Virus record (IMG/VR): IMGVR_UViG_3300021142_000004
Length of the DNA stretch: 64,000 bases
Strand: one strand, 5' to 3'
Source: a virus
A program made the translations under genes and the position numbers. This document shows, piece after piece, positions 38,853-46,781 of the stretch. The notes under the pieces were generated by a model. The model was given only the letters and a program-made list of their open reading frames with translations, did not search any database and was not told the origin of the DNA. Numbering within the stretch: the stretch's first letter is position 1; every line of letters starts with the position of its first letter.

Positions 38853-41105
38853 CTACGAAATATTTTTTGTGATGAAATCTATTGAAGATATATTTTCTTC
38901 TTTTTTAATCATGATTAAATTATCTGACCAGTTTCTTATCAATGTATTATGAGAAATTACAAATATGTGTTCAAAGTAGGTTCTAATCTTCTTAAAGAAC
39001 TCACCAACCATTTCTATATTCTCATCAGCAACTTTACCAAATACTTCATCCATTACAACAATGTTTGGTTTAGGTAATGAAGATATTTTAGTTAATACAC
39101 TTCTTAATGCCAATGATGATATTGTCTTTTCATAACCTGAACCTGAATTCAATGGCTTAACTACTCTTGACTCATTATCAATCATTAAGAACTCAACCTC
39201 ATTCTTTTCATTAATATTTAATTCCAACATGAAATGACAACTATCAGTCAACAATCTAGATAATTCTTGATTTAATAATGGTATCATATTTTTAAGAATA
39301 ATCTTAGATATACCATTCTTACCATAAATTGTTAAGTAGGTTTTAAATACTTGTATCAATTCCTCTTCTGATTTAATCTTTTTAACCAAATCATCATTAA
39401 CCTTTATCTTTTCACCCATATTGGTGATTTGATTTTTGTGTTTTTCGATGAAACCATTAGTTTGTCTGATATCACCATTGGTAGTTTCAATCAATGTTTT
39501 TAAAGTAACAACTTCATTATCAATTTTTTGATTCTCTTCTAATTTTTTCTTGTTACTTTCAAAGTTATCAAGTTTAACTTGTTTCTTGTCAATGTCCAAT
39601 TGTTTTTGTTCTGCCTCCAATTCATGACGAGTTCTACGAAGTTTATTCTTCTCATACTCATCATATTCTTTCTTCAGTAAATTCAATTTTTCATCTTCTT
39701 CTACCCTAAACTTCAATGATGTTTCTACTTCACTAATATGTCCTTCACAATCTTTTATTTCGTATTTTAAATCATTGATTTCATCTGTATGATCCACTTC
39801 TTCTAATGAACGTTTACAAGTTGGACAAACACTTCCTTCCTCTAATTCTTTAATCAATTTAAGTTTTTGATCAATATCATTACGAGTTACTTTAAGGTCA
39901 AAATTAAAGTCAGAAATAGTACTTTTAATACCTTCATGTTTATCTTCATAATAATATTCAGAAGGTTCAAGAACAGAAATTTCATTGGCACTATCTAATG
40001 TTAATTGTTTTTGTCTTTTTAAATCATTAATTTCTTTTAAAAGAACTTCCGGATTAACTTTTATTAGTTCTTGGTCAATGTTATTATTCCTTAAACGTAA
40101 TGCGGTTTCTCTTTTTTCTTCAAGATCTCTTAACCTAACATTAAAATCACCCAATTTTTCAGTTAATTTAATGATTTCACTTTCAGATTCAATTATAGTA
40201 TTTCTACAAAGAGTATTATCATTTTCTAATTGTAATAAGTTATAAGTGTTAGATACCAATTTCTTAGACCATTCATTATAAATTTCTTTACAATTATCTT
40301 CCTTTGCTTTAAGTGCTTCCAAACCTAAAAACTTAGTTAAAATCTGTCCTCTTGCAGTAGGTTTAGATTCAATCAATTCTTCCAAATTATAACCAGTCGT
40401 AAGAATGGTTGAAAGGAAGTCTTCTTGTGTTCCTATTGCAGATTCAATAAACTCTTCTGTTTCTCTTCTTTGTTCACCACTTAAATTAGTTATAGTCCCA
40501 TCTGTATTTTTCTTATAGAACTCCAATTTATTTGTAACAGTATAATCACCCGACCTACTTTTCTTCCTTGTTAAGATCCTTTCAATGAAATAATCCTCAT
40601 TATCAATTGTTATTTCCCCTTTAACTGATAACTCATTTTCATCAGAAAACCTATTGAATATTTCAATATTGGTTTTAGTTTTGGTTGTTGTATTAAAGAA
40701 TAAGAACATCAATAAGTCTACGGACATCGTAGAATTATGCGATAATATCCCATTTGAATAATATTGTTTTACCTCATCTACCTCAATATCTAATAAATCT
40801 TTATAAACACCCGTTGTCATAACAGATTTAATAACATCATTCCCATTTTCTGTTTTTATAATTTGTCCAGGAATTAATTCTTTAACTGGTAAGAATCTAC
40901 CATTTTTTAATTTTATTCTATGGTTTTTAGAACAATTTAAAAATAACCCATCGGAAGTTTCAATTCTATGAACCTCTGAGTTTTTTTCTGTAATTTGACA
41001 ATCCATTATTTTTTTAAATCCATATGGTGTTTTTACTTTTAAATTTAAATCACCATATTTTTCAAATATTGTCTTAATATCACCTATTTTTATTTTTTTA
41101 TTCAT
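38853..41105 (-). CDS. sbcC: Split intein C-half (124 aa) fused to Rad50/SbcC (gp46-like) C-extein
   Basis: VKTPYGF, CSKNH, LLDIEV, LSHN|S; coiled coils, zinc hook CPTC, signature SGSGYE, Walker B VVMDE, ISH. Confidence 0.92.
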   Translation of the reverse strand: MNKKIKIGDIKTIFEKYGDLNLKVKTPYGFKKIMDCQITEKNSEVHRIETSDGLFLNCSKNHRIKLKNGRFLPVKELIPGQIIKTENGNDVIKSVMTTGVYKDLLDIEVDEVKQYYSNGILSHNSTMSVDLLMFLFFNTTTKTKTNIEIFNRFSDENELSVKGEITIDNEDYFIERILTRKKSRSGDYTVTNKLEFYKKNTDGTITNLSGEQRRETEEFIESAIGTQEDFLSTILTTGYNLEELIESKPTARGQILTKFLGLEALKAKEDNCKEIYNEWSKKLVSNTYNLLQLENDNTLCRNTIIESESEIIKLTEKLGDFNVRLRDLEEKRETALRLRNNNIDQELIKVNPEVLLKEINDLKRQKQLTLDSANEISVLEPSEYYYEDKHEGIKSTISDFNFDLKVTRNDIDQKLKLIKELEEGSVCPTCKRSLEEVDHTDEINDLKYEIKDCEGHISEVETSLKFRVEEDEKLNLLKKEYDEYEKNKLRRTRHELEAEQKQLDIDKKQVKLDNFESNKKKLEENQKIDNEVVTLKTLIETTNGDIRQTNGFIEKHKNQITNMGEKIKVNDDLVKKIKSEEELIQVFKTYLTIYGKNGISKIILKNMIPLLNQELSRLLTDSCHFMLELNINEKNEVEFLMIDNESRVVKPLNSGSGYEKTISSLALRSVLTKISSLPKPNIVVMDEVFGKVADENIEMVGEFFKKIRTYFEHIFVISHNTLIRNWSDNLIMIKKEENISSIDFITKNIS

Positions 41106-41169
41106 ATATATTTTAACTTTTATTTATAAAAATATAATATTAGTGGAAAAACTACTGTTAGAAAAAAAA

Positions 41170-41721
41170 TTATTTTAATTCATCAGGTAAAAACCCTAAT
41201 ATTTTAATTATTTCATTTTCATCATATTCAATATCTATTAAAGTTTCTTCATCAACACATTTTCCACCAAAGTTTTTTGGGTTAGATTCCACAGCGGTAA
41301 TACCTTCAAGTTCTGTAAAATCAATAACATTATTACCACCAAATGATAAGAAATTTGAAAATTCAATTCTCTTTATGTACCATTTGTTATAACGAACTTT
41401 ATTTTCATTTAACAAATCAATTGCACCATTAACTTTATTATCTAACCTATCAATCATATCCCATTTAATGTTGATTTTATTTTCTTCAATAAAATCTTTC
41501 ATTAATTTCTTTTGGAACTGATGATCGGTGATACTATCAGAAACTTCCAATGATTTTAGTTTAGTATCATCAGTATTGATGATGTGTTTTGGAACGATTT
41601 GTACGTTTCTTGATCCATACTTATGTTGGAAGTATGTTTTTATTCTTTTAACCTTTTCTTCAGTAAAATTCTCAGGTACATCTTCCCATGTAACCTTAAT
41701 AACCGGTGATTTATATTTCAT
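41170..41721 (-). CDS. sbcC: Rad50/SbcC N-extein (with N-terminal extension) fused to a 29-aa split intein N-half
   Basis: WYIKRIEFSNFLSFG..IDF..GITAVESNPKNFGGK|CVDEETLIDIEYD... Confidence 0.88.
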   Translation of the reverse strand: MKYKSPVIKVTWEDVPENFTEEKVKRIKTYFQHKYGSRNVQIVPKHIINTDDTKLKSLEVSDSITDHQFQKKLMKDFIEENKINIKWDMIDRLDNKVNGAIDLLNENKVRYNKWYIKRIEFSNFLSFGGNNVIDFTELEGITAVESNPKNFGGKCVDEETLIDIEYDENEIIKILGFLPDELK

Positions 41722-41723
41722 AT

Positions 41724-42047
41724 TTAATTTATTCTATTTTCTTCAAAAAATTCTATTATTGCGTTTATTGACCAAACTATACCAGCAGTAAACATACCAT
41801 CAAAAAACATATTAATAAACCATCCAAAATCTGTAAAATATTTGGATACTAAACCACCAAATACTAACGATAAGAAAAATCCAATCCATGTGGATGTACA
41901 AAGTACACATTCAATCAATGCCCCGAAAAACAATGAATTATCTTTTATCCAATTTCTTGGTTTATCAAATATTGACCCATATACCAATATGGTACTCATT
42001 CCGTATGCCATAAATGACCATACTAAAAAAATTACTAAATCTTTCAT
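41724..42047 (-). CDS. DUF1360-like membrane protein
   Basis: TM helices with LIECVLCTSTWIG (CxxC..W). Confidence 0.6.
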   Translation of the reverse strand: MKDLVIFLVWSFMAYGMSTILVYGSIFDKPRNWIKDNSLFFGALIECVLCTSTWIGFFLSLVFGGLVSKYFTDFGWFINMFFDGMFTAGIVWSINAIIEFFEENRIN

Positions 42048-42092
42048 ACTTTTTTTTTTACAATTATAATTAAAAATTTTTATTATACCAAA

Positions 42093-42446
42093 TTATTCAT
42101 CATAAAGATCTTTTTTTGGTGTTACTTTTACCACTGGTTTCTCACCTTCTTTTATCATTTTAGTTGGTGGTGGTTCGGGTGTGTTTGGTGTTGTTTTAGC
42201 AAAAACTTTAATAGCATGTGGGAATGGTAAATTAGATTGATCTAAAAAACCAGCATCTTCCCATTTCTTTATTGTCTCTTTTTTTAAGTCATCCAATGTT
42301 TTTATATTAGGTTTTTCTCCATATTTTAATATTGTAAAACCTTGTTTAAAAACTTCATTTGCTTTACCTTCAATATCTTCAATGTTGTTTAATTTACAAT
42401 ACTGAATAAATTCTTTATCCAAGGTTAAGGAATACTTCTTCTCCAT
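42093..42446 (-). CDS. Hypothetical protein
   Basis: 117-aa ORF. Confidence 0.55.
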   Translation of the reverse strand: MEKKYSLTLDKEFIQYCKLNNIEDIEGKANEVFKQGFTILKYGEKPNIKTLDDLKKETIKKWEDAGFLDQSNLPFPHAIKVFAKTTPNTPEPPPTKMIKEGEKPVVKVTPKKDLYDE

Positions 42447-42711
42447 TCTCTATATCTTTTATATCGTTTATTTTAAAATGTAAAAAAGGACTTTCATTCA
42501 ATACATCATGAAATGTATATTCATCACTTTCCACATCATACAAACCATAACCATGATGGTTAACTGTTTCACCAAAATTTTGTTGTATTAATGAACCTAT
42601 TTGGATAATAGGTATTTTTTTTAATAATTTAATTTTTCCCATAATTCTTTTAATTTTTCTTTTATTTTTTGGTTGATAATTTTTTTTACATTGTATGCAT
42701 TCTTTCTCCAT
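42415..42711 (-). CDS. sbcD: Mre11/SbcD second fragment (probable start MGKIK at 42642)
   Basis: IGSLIQQNFGE..HGYG is the post-motif-V segment of SbcD/gp47 nucleases. Confidence 0.75.
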   Translation of the reverse strand: MEKECIQCKKNYQPKNKRKIKRIMGKIKLLKKIPIIQIGSLIQQNFGETVNHHGYGLYDVESDEYTFHDVLNESPFLHFKINDIKDIENGEEVFLNLG

Positions 42712-42759
42712 GTTTTTGTTGTTTATTATAAAAAAAAGGGATTCAACAAAATTTTAGTG

Positions 42760-43425
42760 TTATATTCTTTTCCAACCTTTTTTTAAATATCCATCAATAT
42801 CTTTTTCATCTATTTCAATTTCTCTTTCTAAATATTTTATATCTCTCTTATGTATATCTCCACATAAAACAATATCACACCCAACAAAGTTTAATTTATC
42901 ATATGCAGTTTCATCAAATTCATATCCCGTATTGGTAGTAAATCCTTGAATAGGACCATGAAATAATCCAACATGAAGTTTATCCTCTTCTACCTCAAAT
43001 TCAGGTCTATTATTGTGTTGGAATAACGAATAGACTATCCAGTTAACATTATCATCAGAATACATTCCACCGTCTCTATAATAGGTTATATTCGGGTTGT
43101 TTAATGTTTCCACAATTGGTGTGATTGTATCTAATCTATTCATATTATTTTCCAAGAAATCATGATTACCCGGTATAATGATAAGTTTACCTATTTTACT
43201 TAATTCATTGAAGAACCAAGTAACTAATACGACTTGTTCATTGGAAATATTAATTTTTTGGTGCACCACATCACCTGTTAAAACTATTCTTATTTCATCA
43301 TATTCAAAACCTTTTAATTTTGGTCTTAAATCAATTAAGAATTCATTTAATTGTTTGTGATAATGTTCGTGTAATAAGAATGTACGAACATGCAAATCTG
43401 AAATGTGTACTATTTTTTTTATCAT
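42760..43425 (-). CDS. sbcD: Mre11/SbcD (gp47-like) phosphoesterase, first fragment
   Basis: HISDLH, TGDVVH, PGNHD, LFHG and GDIHK motifs I-V. Confidence 0.9.
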   Translation of the reverse strand: MIKKIVHISDLHVRTFLLHEHYHKQLNEFLIDLRPKLKGFEYDEIRIVLTGDVVHQKINISNEQVVLVTWFFNELSKIGKLIIIPGNHDFLENNMNRLDTITPIVETLNNPNITYYRDGGMYSDDNVNWIVYSLFQHNNRPEFEVEEDKLHVGLFHGPIQGFTTNTGYEFDETAYDKLNFVGCDIVLCGDIHKRDIKYLEREIEIDEKDIDGYLKKGWKRI

Positions 43426-44279
43426 TTGTTTAAATATTTTTTTACATCCATTGTTAATACTGTGTTTATTATATCCATAGGAACTCTATATTCCTCAAAT
43501 GTTGCATCATCTTTTAACAATACAACAATACACCCAAGTAATTTTAAATTCTCATATTTAGTACCCTTTAACATCTTTAATAGTAGTTTTACATATAATG
43601 GTAACTGAACATAATAATGTCCTAACGCTGTATTATCATATGATTTAAATGGTGGGTACATTTTTTTTGTATATGGTTGTGCAATAAAGTTTTTTGGTTG
43701 GTTTGTTTTATAATCTGAAACACATAATGATATATTAACATTTTGTTTATCCATTATTAACCAAACTTTATCAGGTTGCCCAGTATATCCTAATTCAGGA
43801 TCACCTAACACAATTTCCGTATCCAATAAAACAGCATTCCTTTCTTCCATTAAATCTAAAAATTTATTTCCGGCAATAATCATCGAATCACTTTTTATAA
43901 TTTGACTTTCATCACATTCAAAAATAGGTTGTCTAACTTCTTTATAATTACCATATCTTTTTATCAATTCTTTTTCCAATTCATAATGAACTCTACTACC
44001 CATATTCGTCGAGTAATCTGCAGCATCTTTCCATTTTTTTAATAATAATTCTTGTTCATATAAATCACCTTTTGCCATAGATAGTGATATACCTTCACTA
44101 TCAAAATGTTCATGGAAACATTTAATAACTTTGGATACTGATGGGAATGTATTCTTAACTACACCATCAGTATCTTTCATGAAATAAACGTGTTCATCTT
44201 CAATGAATGTTAATTCTAATTCTTGTCTTCTTTTTTCTAATAACTCTTTTATTTCTTTTGAAGCTTCTTTTAAATCCAT
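43422..44279 (-). CDS. PD-(D/E)XK exonuclease
   Basis: PSVS, GSRVH, E..GQPD..DYKT, YYVQLPLY. Confidence 0.8.
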   Translation of the reverse strand: MDLKEASKEIKELLEKRRQELELTFIEDEHVYFMKDTDGVVKNTFPSVSKVIKCFHEHFDSEGISLSMAKGDLYEQELLLKKWKDAADYSTNMGSRVHYELEKELIKRYGNYKEVRQPIFECDESQIIKSDSMIIAGNKFLDLMEERNAVLLDTEIVLGDPELGYTGQPDKVWLIMDKQNVNISLCVSDYKTNQPKNFIAQPYTKKMYPPFKSYDNTALGHYYVQLPLYVKLLLKMLKGTKYENLKLLGCIVVLLKDDATFEEYRVPMDIINTVLTMDVKKYLNK

Positions 44280-45220
44280 TAATCTAATTGTTTAATTTTG
44301 TAATCACTAAGATTACCTTGTAAATCTGCAATATCCTTATCAATAGGTAATTTTACAATCCATACTTTACCCATTAATTTACCGCAATTTATTTTATGGT
44401 ATAATTTTTCAGCATTATCCCAAGCGTCCCCATCTAACACTATTACAATTTTTTTTGCAGAATCATAAAGTTTTTTAAATAACTTTTCATGTAAAACCTT
44501 ACCTAACATTGGGATTGAATTAGGAAGAAATATACTATCAAAAACTCCTTCAACCAAGTAAATTGTTTCATCCCAATTTATATGATCTTCATTCCATATT
44601 ATAACTTCTTTTTGTGCTTCCGGGTTTTTATATTTTAATTTTGGTTTATTTTGATACGATCTCGCAACAAAATAATTTATCTTATTGTCCTCATCATATG
44701 ATGGGATAATTATCCTACCACCATATTCACCAAGATAACAAAAACCAATATCATATTTTTCAATCATTTCATTGGTTATGTTTCTTTTTTTAAGGTAATT
44801 CCATGCCTGTTTAAAATATGGGGTCATTTTAAAACCAGCACTTACATCTTTAAATCTAATAAACTCTTTTGGTAATCTAACTGGTTTATATTCTCTCTTT
44901 GGAGAATCCTCGTTACTTTCAGGTCTTAGTAATTGAAACTTACCAAGTTGTTTTTTATTTCCGTATTTTTTAATTAATTTAAATAATGTACCATGTGTAC
45001 TATGTGTTTCCGAACATGACCAACATTTAAAGACTTCTTCTTTATAATTGACTTCTAAATTACCTTTTCCATCACCATCATCTAAACCTTTGATTTCATG
45101 GGAGCATACAGGACAATCAAAAGATATTTGTCCTTTATAATCATTATGTAATTTATAATCTCCGAAAATATCTTCGAGAATATCAATCACTGGTGAATAA
45201 TCTACTAATTGTTCGGTCAT
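44279..45220 (-). CDS. DNA primase (Zn-finger plus TOPRIM)
   Basis: CPVC..CWSC, RIIIPS, KYKNP, LVEGVFD, LDGDA. Likely start MTEQ at 45220. Confidence 0.88.
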   Translation of the reverse strand: MTEQLVDYSPVIDILEDIFGDYKLHNDYKGQISFDCPVCSHEIKGLDDGDGKGNLEVNYKEEVFKCWSCSETHSTHGTLFKLIKKYGNKKQLGKFQLLRPESNEDSPKREYKPVRLPKEFIRFKDVSAGFKMTPYFKQAWNYLKKRNITNEMIEKYDIGFCYLGEYGGRIIIPSYDEDNKINYFVARSYQNKPKLKYKNPEAQKEVIIWNEDHINWDETIYLVEGVFDSIFLPNSIPMLGKVLHEKLFKKLYDSAKKIVIVLDGDAWDNAEKLYHKINCGKLMGKVWIVKLPIDKDIADLQGNLSDYKIKQLD

Positions 45221-46529: not shown

Positions 46530-46781
46530 TTAACAATATTCCCATTTATAGCCTCCAGCAGATTTAACTTTTCCTAAACAACATTCTGAAATATGCCCGT
46601 TTTTTATTTTTTTTTTCGCCTCATTTATACTATCCCATTCTTTAATTAATTTACCATCCATAGTTAATTGTTTAACTCTTTTTTTTGATGTTGATGAATT
46701 AGAAAGTTTTAAACATAATTCATTAGAAAATTTTTTTCCTTTATTTGGTGATACTCTACCTTTTAAAACTAAATAATAATT
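46530..46781 (-). pseudogene. Homing endonuclease relic (NUMOD3 plus NUMOD1/HTH DNA-binding tail only)
   Basis: LKGRVSPNKGKKFSNELCLKLS..KKRVKQLTMDGKLIKEWDSINEA..ISECCLGKVKSAGGYKWEYC*; no upstream in-frame start or nuclease domain. Confidence 0.8.

Follow-up and report, generated by a model that had tools for sequence, protein, structure and literature searches.

Among the 'fractured genes' described by Dassa et al. (2009), one locus from Lake Gatun carried no intein and consisted of an SbcD-like gene split by a Vsr-like endonuclease (PMC2677866). At the break, the halves of this gene bore additional residues, 25 at the C-terminus of one and 9 at the N-terminus of the other, and the downstream open reading frame (ORF) was overlapped by the endonuclease (PMC2677866). 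In phage Aeh1, the tails of the mobE-split NrdA were found to be essential, and Crona et al. (2011) proposed them as a general remedy supplied by the element; the same authors remarked on tail-like extensions in T4 gp39/gp60 (PMC3045599). Here we analyse an Mre11/SbcD gene divided into two ORFs in 64,000 nucleotides (nt) of virus DNA, IMG/VR record IMGVR_UViG_3300021142_000004. This whole stretch, referred to below as the window, belongs to an uncultured AT-rich phage (G+C content 27.9%). Compared by published description, the present locus is almost certainly the same system as the SbcD-like locus of Dassa et al.

We consider it probable that the gene was split by a cassette with a homing endonuclease gene (HEG), that the endonuclease was later lost, and that Mre11 now consists of two chains rejoined non-covalently with the help of an arm formed by the tail of one and the leader of the other. 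The free-standing HEG cassette entered Mre11/SbcD at the β-hairpin just behind phosphoesterase motif V (GDIHKR). It comprises, in this order, a 27-codon acidic tail with its stop, a short spacer, an endonuclease ORF of ~300 codons, an ATG overlapping the 3' end of the endonuclease and a 14-codon basic leader, and by replacing the native 13-residue hairpin it turned one gene into two. Later, an 824-nt deletion between AAATAAAA microhomologies destroyed the endonuclease and left 17 codons of it fused in frame to fragment 2. Since both ORFs are intact, conserved and under purifying selection, we infer that the enzyme is made as two polypeptides, with all metal-binding motifs on fragment 1 and the last core strand and the capping domain on fragment 2. 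The halves must stay two chains because splicing residues are absent, and their reassembly would be non-covalent, with the tail (strand-helix-strand) on one side and the leader (strand) on the other side of an extended β-arm that would carry alternating acidic and basic residues. By analogy with the element-derived tails in the mobE-split NrdA of Aeh1, this arm probably stabilises the junction.

In the window, Mre11/SbcD is encoded on the minus strand (43425..42415) by two ORFs lying in one frame, ORF 1 at 42760-43425 (221 amino acids, aa) and ORF 2 at 42415-42711 (98 aa). Along the frame, the translation runs from the 221-aa ORF, which ends with ..CGDIHKR followed by DIKYLEREIEIDEKDIDGYLKKGWKRI, through TAA, CAC, TAA and 14 codons to MEKECIQCKKNYQPKNKRKIKRI and then MGKIKLLKKIPIIQIGSLIQQNFGE... 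The length of fragment 2 depends on the start ATG and is 75 aa from the ATG at 42642 or 98 aa from the stub ATG at 42711. The following parts were distinguished.

42844..43425, minus strand: Mre11/SbcD fragment 1 core, residues 1-194, with motifs I-V, ending with GDIHKR; 93% identical to the unsplit P0001.
42763..42843, minus strand: acidic C-terminal tail of 27 aa, DIKYLEREIEIDEKDIDGYLKKGWKRI, cassette-borne; predicted strand, helix and short strand.
42760..42762, minus strand: stop TAA of fragment 1, at the same position in L093, L098 and L125.
42712..42759, minus strand: 48-nt spacer, the former 5' untranslated region of the endonuclease, in which the motif CTAAAATTTTGTTGAAT and a further in-frame TAA occur; alignable to the spacer that precedes the full HEG in L093, L125 and L001.
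42661..42711, minus strand: stub of a predicted Vsr-like/DUF559 homing endonuclease, its 17 first codons (MEKECIQCKKNYQPKNK), which match the beginning of the L125 HEG (294 aa) exactly and that of the L093 HEG at 94% identity.
42660..42667, minus strand: AAATAAAA microhomology, junction of the 824-nt deletion according to alignments with L093, L098 and L125.
42643..42660, minus strand: last 18 nt of the former endonuclease 3' end, now read as RKIKRI in the frame of fragment 2; identical to the 3' end upstream of the fragment 2 ATG in L093/L098.
42601..42642, minus strand: basic N-terminal leader of fragment 2, MGKIKLLKKIPIIQ, with the ATG from the cassette-border repeat; ATG and leader are kept in ~30 split loci.
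42415..42642, minus strand: Mre11/SbcD fragment 2, 75 aa and stop, last core strand and capping domain; 92% identical to fragment 2 of L093 and alignable to the C-terminal third of unsplit homologues.

Fragment 1 matched Pfam Metallophos (PF00149) at 1e-11 as well as the SbcD-like family of PHROG, and all phosphoesterase motifs I-V (DxH, GD, GNHD, H, GDxH) were located on this fragment, their residues being invariant in the family alignment. The gap between the halves is 117 nt long and contains a second TAA; AAAAGAAT was found twice, at 42764-42771 and 42644-42651. The partner gene Rad50/SbcC lies near the locus (38853-41721; PHROG SbcC-like, 4e-36) and has matches to the Rad50 zinc hook and Walker B. 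The 98-aa ORF recurred exactly, and beside the same genes, in 5 contigs from at least 4 samples, one of these contigs being 163 kb long, so the split arrangement is not an assembly artefact.

The original prediction for this stretch, which regarded the gene as an Mre11/SbcD split without an intein and joined again through complementary terminal tails, described the layout accurately. The translation of 43425..42415 gives the two same-frame ORFs with stops between them, the acidic tail and the basic leader. Its placement of motifs I-V on fragment 1 up to GDIHKR agrees with the Pfam match and with the alignment, no intein motifs were found at the break, and the short linker that it expected after GDxH in intact homologues corresponds to the 13 aa between GDIHKR and IGS in unsplit forms. 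The assembly artefact that it named as a possible objection was ruled out.

In split relatives, the gap between the two halves was occupied by a complete ORF of ~260-320 codons. Locus L125, which is 99.4% identical to the window upstream and 96.9% downstream, has a 294-aa ORF in the gap with the same first 17 residues, and L093 and L098 (85-94% DNA identity to the window) have a 304-aa ORF there. The halves were in the original order and orientation with the endonuclease ORF between them in L125, L093, L098, L001, L003, L006, L037 and L038 and in 21 metagenome loci. The inserted ORF passed the Pfam DUF559 model (PF04480) with 21.8-28.3 bits against a cut-off of 20.6 (L093, L125, L037, L142), a Vsr match of 5e-6 was obtained for the endonuclease of L142, and inserted ORFs matched homing and HNH endonuclease families of PHROG; in the PDB, phmmer found nothing for the endonuclease beyond a weak match to a DUF559 structure (3hrl, E = 0.18). 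DUF559 is a Vsr-like domain with the restriction-endonuclease fold. By these matches, the gap ORF of the relatives is a Vsr-like/DUF559 free-standing homing endonuclease, a family with an experimentally characterised member, I-Bth0305I (PMC3239194). Endonucleases of a second type at this site (L003, L006, L038, L104) share with the first type an N-terminal zinc-finger region of ~110 aa (37% identity), but their C-terminal domain is TnsA-like. A third type, found in L143, has an H-x-D-H..N motif suggestive of HNH, for which Pfam gave no confirmation. The 3' end of the endonuclease overlapped the ATG of fragment 2 in every case; the overlap measured 22 nt for L093, 19 nt for both L001 and L003, and 4 nt (ATGA) for L125. 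With a full insert, the gap is 817-957 nt long and contains the complete ORF, and the halves are in different frames. In L125 (1469-1693) the leader differs and the usual IGS reads PSS (MKIKIKKKVPIIYPSS..); these differences, together with an endonuclease only 63% identical to that of L093, suggest recombination inside the cassette of L125.

From the tail to codon 17 of the endonuclease, stop and 48-nt spacer included, the window is collinear with L093, L098 and L125. The alignment then skips to the 18 nt directly ahead of the ATG of fragment 2, and 824 nt are gone. The junction of this deletion lies within the 8-nt microhomology AAATAAAA (42660-42667). The remaining stub has no Vsr/DUF559 domain. 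Judged from these alignments, the window allele is a decayed copy with 17 endonuclease codons left, and the halves share a frame in the window because the deletion joined the stub in frame to fragment 2. Other states of decay were found elsewhere: 3' remnants of the endonuclease in L112, L113 and L116, split genes with no detectable endonuclease in L005 and L110, and in-frame re-fusions in L101, L127 and L103.

The search with fragment 1 returned 1,562 relatives, and the forms of the gene were counted among the best 120 of them. About 70 were unsplit (form A), 266-277 aa long, with 13 residues between GDIHKR and IGS (e.g., QTFTLPNGGKGIM). Split proteins of 207-236 aa, mostly ~220 aa, with a tail of the window's kind at the end made up ~42 (form C), and 6 were contiguous (re-fused) proteins of 270-302 aa with tail and leader in one chain (form B). 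The top match overall, P0001, is of the unsplit form and 93% identical to the window. The tail was absent from all unsplit homologues and present in every split homologue. Among 80 related loci in IMG/VR, 77 were unsplit, with a linker of 30-33 nt (42 nt in one). A metagenome set of 36 loci, fetched by a pattern that demands the tail, comprised 21 loci with a full HEG, 3 with remnants, 1 split without a detectable HEG, 3 re-fused and 8 ending before fragment 2. In GenBank phages, blastn gave no match to the locus, and tblastn found relatives at 26-34% identity only.

The empty site is represented by L086, a contig collinear with the window (81-89% identity) in which the gene is unsplit and encodes 268 aa. 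Here 53 nt correspond to 257 nt of the window, a 13-aa hairpin standing against tail, gap and leader; in the window, the place of this native hairpin is taken by tail, spacer, stub and leader as a whole. Some contiguous genes still bear traces of the insert. The last 12 residues of a TnsA-like endonuclease are held by P0019 (compared with L006), and P0004 and L103 keep a ..R-MGK.. start inside the joined chain; these three are therefore healed genes and not ancestors. Most of the tail is missing from the re-fused P0049.

Split genes were thoroughly interleaved with unsplit ones in a tree built from 132 rows of the catalytic core, and by approximate count at least 24 changes of state were required, at least 10 of them forced by well-supported branches. 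Search with the tail motif led to L142 and its relatives, another lineage that has the tail, a Vsr-like endonuclease and the leader, and in which fragment 2 runs on into a Rad50-like ATPase, forming an Mre11-Rad50 fusion. In comparison with this lineage, the core was 34%, the endonuclease 32% and the tail 58-71% identical. The passage of fragment 2 into the ATPase (Pfam AAA_23) was seen at 9696-10379 of L142 and also in L137 and L139-L141; the fusion is still cut by the tail/endonuclease/leader cassette. At closer range, the cassette ends were 97-100% identical between the window and L093 and the flanks ~90%, which is a weak signal; the tail had 1 difference in 81 nt, and the synonymous divergence in the core was 0.56. 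The signal of co-conversion beside the cassette was also weak, the identity to L086 falling only to ~82% in the last 45 nt upstream. From the deep and close comparisons, tail and leader are part of the mobile unit, or else co-conversion with it is the rule without exception, and on these identities they are more strongly constrained than the nuclease that moves them.

A direct repeat of 9 nt, TGGGAAAAA, was found at both borders of the cassette in most lineages (~20 loci); in the window it takes the form TGGAAAAGAAT / ATGGGAAAAAT (42764-42774 and 42640-42651). The ATG of fragment 2 is composed of A and the TG of the copied Trp codon from the GW motif of the tail, and in another frame the nucleotides of the border repeat also encode the C-terminus of the endonuclease (..WEKLN). 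In addition, an inverted repeat of 19 nt, 89% complementary, was observed at 42570-42588 and 42741-42759. Its arms lie in the former 5' untranslated region of the endonuclease (CTAAAATTTTGTTGAAT) and in the fragment 2 codons for IQQNFGE. The same repeat was present in L125 (19 nt, 89%) and L001 (21 nt, 81%) and was weaker in L093. It could reflect mRNA pairing across the endonuclease ORF, a trace of the cassette's origin, or chance. The spacer motif CTAAAATTTTGTTGAAT did not prove to be a promoter-like element repeated in the window.

The tail of the window has a net charge of -1 and an isoelectric point (pI) of 5.1, and the leader a charge of +4 and a pI of 10.5. In relatives the charges were -2 to -6 for the tail and +4 to +5 for the leader, and in all eight split loci compared the pI was 4.1-5.1 and 10.5-11.3, respectively. 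Among 42 tails, G and W were invariant and E10, D12, E13 and Y19 nearly invariant; the mean pairwise identity of the tails was 50%, vs. 68% for the core. The tail was 26-30 aa long in 41 of the 42 aligned split proteins and 27-28 aa in all but one split locus; the leader length was 9-14 aa.

AlphaFold2 was applied to the re-fused homologue P0080 and to the window read-through with TAA read as Gly. MAFFT misplaced the tails of the split proteins in two alignments, and the window read-through was folded on an alignment without those rows. The model of P0080 had a predicted local distance difference test score (pLDDT) of 88, with 85-96 across the insert, and showed a strand (197-209), a helix (210-217), a strand (222-227), a 2-residue turn and a further strand (230-242); the stop of the split forms lands in this turn. 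The read-through model of the window (pLDDT 84, ~80 in tail and leader) had the same strand and helix in the tail and a leader strand at 264-276, with stub and spacer disordered. Foldseek search, for which the P0080 model was the only query, returned the nuclease-plus-capping structures of Mre11/SbcD 3auz, 4tug, 7dog, 1ii7 and 4m0v with probability 1.00 and a template modelling (TM) score of ~0.55. According to these models, the two chains would rebuild an extended β-arm with tail and leader as neighbouring strands.

Compared with L093, the ratio of nonsynonymous to synonymous substitution rates (dN/dS) was 0.05 for the core and 0.085 for fragment 2, and in deeper pairs it was 0.08-0.19 for both. 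Both ORFs were intact in all split loci where both were seen, in lineages down to 47% identity. By these ratios, both halves are under purifying selection.

Several points weigh against our explanation or restrict it. The tree came from a quick search with support only from the Shimodaira-Hasegawa-like approximate likelihood ratio test (SH-aLRT), recombination may blur it, and its numbers are approximate. The pairing of tail and leader strands and their salt bridges were read from secondary structure alone, and the AlphaFold2 model is that of a single chain, not a heterodimer. The loss of the tail from P0049 means that the arm is dispensable in a continuous chain; it is uninformative on the split state. 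In the stub allele fragment 2 may start at either ATG, giving 98 or 75 aa. Finally, in Aeh1 the tails are needed for higher-order assembly only and not for the binding of the halves (PMC3045599), and 'staple' may thus be too simple a word.

Tail and leader could also be passive, that is, the two halves of a β-arm that pre-existed in the first invaded Mre11 and was co-converted with homing, the core interface itself holding the halves together. The 9-nt repeat TGGGAAAAA at the insert borders of most lineages is what insertion into a continuous ...GWEKIKL... coding sequence would be expected to give, contiguous forms do exist (P0056, P0080), and in re-fused P0049 most of the arm is gone. However, the contiguous forms are rare (6 of the best 120) and nested in split clades, the junction is different in each of them, and at least P0019, P0004 and L103 are secondary. 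Moreover, the tail is 58-71% identical in the deepest comparison, where the core reaches 34% and the endonuclease 32%, and its length is nearly constant, 26-30 aa in all but one of 42. Passive tails therefore seem to us unlikely. A degenerate split intein is possible as the origin of the tail and leader, with no positive evidence for it in the locus. The layout of the locus equals that of intein-bearing 'fractured genes', as Dassa et al. remarked (PMC2677866), and the same idea was raised by Crona et al. for Aeh1 (PMC3045599). The 27-aa tail is close in length to the short N-inteins of this genome (29 aa in Rad50) and has the same acidic strand-helix character. Nevertheless, position 1 of the tail is variable (A, N, S, D or Q) and never Cys, the leader has 9-14 aa vs. 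the ~120-aa C-intein that accompanies short N-inteins, and neither a TxxH block nor HN + C/S/T at the leader end was found at the break. We regard it as improbable that tail and leader are intein remnants of which only the electrostatic docking strands survive. A functional intein at the break was rejected, the splicing residues being absent.

The two in-frame stops and the clear decay of the endonuclease in the window could suggest that fragment 2, or the whole Mre11 gene, is a decaying pseudogene. This is very improbable: both ORFs are intact wherever both were seen, down to 47% identity, dN/dS is 0.05-0.19 for core and fragment 2, the ATG of fragment 2 is conserved, the stub allele occurs in several samples on contigs up to 163 kb, and the partner Rad50 is kept too. 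Production of a single Mre11 chain across 42643-42762 by ribosomal bypassing in the style of T4 gene 60, by RNA splicing or by stop read-through was also considered. In bypassing of the T4 gene 60 type, the take-off and landing codons match, the take-off codon is directly followed by a stop, and the gap is ~50 nt with a take-off stem-loop. In the window the halves are in the same frame with AAAAGAAT on both sides of the gap, and the T4 bypass element itself lies within a homing-endonuclease cassette (bioRxiv 10.1101/2022.08.31.505936). The shared frame is, however, limited to the deletion allele; full inserts of 817-957 nt contain a whole ORF and put the halves in different frames. The codons at the gap edges, ATA ahead of the stop and ATT ahead of the ATG, are not matched, the gap has 117 nt with a second TAA inside, and the separate ATG of fragment 2 is conserved. 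At E ≤ 1, Rfam yielded no intron or other RNA family for window 41000-44500 or for the cassette of L093, and the fold of the spacer was not significant (z = +0.44). We give such a single chain almost no credence. An alternative genetic code is needless because relatives carry a whole gene in the gap.

Returning to the explanation by a cassette, the acidic strand-helix-GW tail and the basic strand of the original prediction proved real and conserved (G and W in 42 of 42 tails), and in the AlphaFold2 models they are the sides of one β-arm with the break at the turn. Bypassing and splicing, which it held to be less likely, are rejected here on the full ORF in the gap of relatives, the unmatched codons and the lack of an Rfam match or a fold. 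The common frame of the halves is true of the window and is an accident of the 824-nt deletion, since the frames differ with the full insert. The K-R-I repeat said to flank the gap does occur at both edges (AAAAGAAT), as a part of the general cassette-border repeat, TGGGAAAAA in most lineages. Homologues with a contiguous loop, thought of as evidence to the contrary, exist in that few carry tail and leader joined; at least 3 of these are secondary re-fusions after loss of the endonuclease. Two aspects were missed: the tails are no local invention but constant parts of a mobile cassette in many phages, and the cause of the split is a homing-endonuclease cassette whose stub is still in the window. 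The earlier interpretation is therefore partly supported, a reasonable idea, yet not new, a stapling role of such tails having been put forward for NrdA of Aeh1 (PMC3045599).

Tentatively, we propose that the tail-leader pair could be a portable, cassette-borne protein 'zipper'. It would be the constant part of cassettes with interchangeable nucleases (Vsr-like, TnsA-like, possibly HNH) that repeatedly invaded Mre11 genes down to 34% identity, including Mre11-Rad50 fusions, and would have been selected for neutralising the fracture without splicing. If this is true, the pair amounts to a minimal split-protein assembly tag of natural origin (27 + 14 aa), and the locus is a second, far more populous test case for the model that an element brings its own antidote, proposed from the single Aeh1 example. 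Dozens of natural variants are available for testing whether a fractured enzyme works thanks to short element-derived tails, an idea based so far on one biochemical case (Aeh1 NrdA). The locus also shows stages of the HEG life cycle in one phage population and inside an essential gene: empty, invaded, decayed but split (window) and re-fused. For annotation, both Mre11 ORFs are to be taken as pieces of a single functional gene, neither a pseudogene nor evidence of recoding.

Several observations were made on neighbouring genes. Rad50/SbcC of the window (38853-41721, minus strand) is split in the P-loop by a split intein with a short N-part; the break reads ..GGK|CVDEETL.. at the end of the N-fragment and ..SHN|STMSVD.. 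where the C-fragment takes over. In L086 (7446-9788) there is a single 780-aa Rad50/SbcC gene without an intein, and L125 (1-777, 97-99% identical) runs through the Rad50 junction without an intein (..GGKTTISVD..). The Rad50 intein is therefore polymorphic in the population, like the Mre11 cassette. A 117-aa ORF (42093-42446, minus strand) overlaps the end of fragment 2 by 32 nt and is conserved as a neighbour of Mre11, whether split or unsplit, in all family loci examined. Its N-terminal ~45 aa are helical and are followed by a variable linker and, at the C-terminus, a conserved ..LY(D/G/S)E; it gave no matches in Pfam or PHROG. Because these Mre11 proteins end early (~268 aa), this ORF might supply a missing C-terminal (Rad50-binding?) module. 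Between the homologue of the 117-aa ORF and a membrane-protein gene, L093 (12654-12968) and L003 (7983-8714) have a zinc-finger ORF (MNKYCIKCE.. / MKKICKKCG..), which is absent in the window and is probably another endonuclease. A 43-aa ORF of the window (46530-46661, minus strand) is IENR1/NUMOD1-like and lies in a ~230-nt stretch absent from L086; it looks like another homing-endonuclease remnant. A full GIY-YIG/NUMOD endonuclease is present in L086 (3118-3966), and that site is empty in the window (~45156-45175).

The locus agrees with the SbcD-like locus of Dassa et al. in that the two ORFs are the N- and C-halves of the gene with a Vsr-like endonuclease between them and no intein, in the extra residues at the break, absent from unsplit homologues (25 + 9 there, 27 + 9-14 here), and in the overlap of the endonuclease 3' end with the downstream fragment. 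It differs in the window endonuclease, a 17-codon stub fused in frame to fragment 2; the Dassa paper was concerned with one locus, and the extra residues were given no role (PMC2677866). As in split-intein fractured genes, including Rad50/SbcC of the window, the order is half, (endonuclease), half, in the same phage population and DNA-repair complex and with polymorphic presence, but the Mre11 break is without splicing residues. The split of T4 topoisomerase gp39/gp60 (mobA, gene 60 bypass; PMC2988022; bioRxiv 10.1101/2022.08.31.505936) is likewise a case in which an HEG cassette fragments a phage DNA enzyme and brings mitigating sequences; unlike T4 gene 60, the Mre11 locus has no bypass signals and its fragments are translated separately.

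With NrdA-a / MobE / NrdA-b of Aeh1 (Friedrich et al., 2007; PMC3045599), the locus has in common an essential DNA-metabolism gene cut between adjacent β-strands by a free-standing homing endonuclease, the overlap of the endonuclease with the downstream fragment, and tails of opposite charge at the C- and N-termini, which unsplit homologues lack and which were proposed as an element-supplied antidote to the split. The host protein is different, and the endonuclease is the HNH-type MobE there vs. Vsr-like/DUF559, TnsA-like and possibly HNH here. The charges are the other way round, the C-terminal tail being acidic in Mre11 and basic in Aeh1, and the catalytic residues are all on fragment 1 here, whereas the active site is partitioned in Aeh1. 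Aeh1 is the single case with biochemistry; here dozens of natural alleles are known from sequence alone. The arrangement itself is already known, having been sketched in print in 2009-2011 (Dassa et al.; Crona et al.); new here are the population picture of empty, full, decayed and healed alleles, the interchangeable nuclease domains at one site, the spread of the cassette into a distant Mre11-Rad50 fusion, and a structural model of the tail-leader arm.

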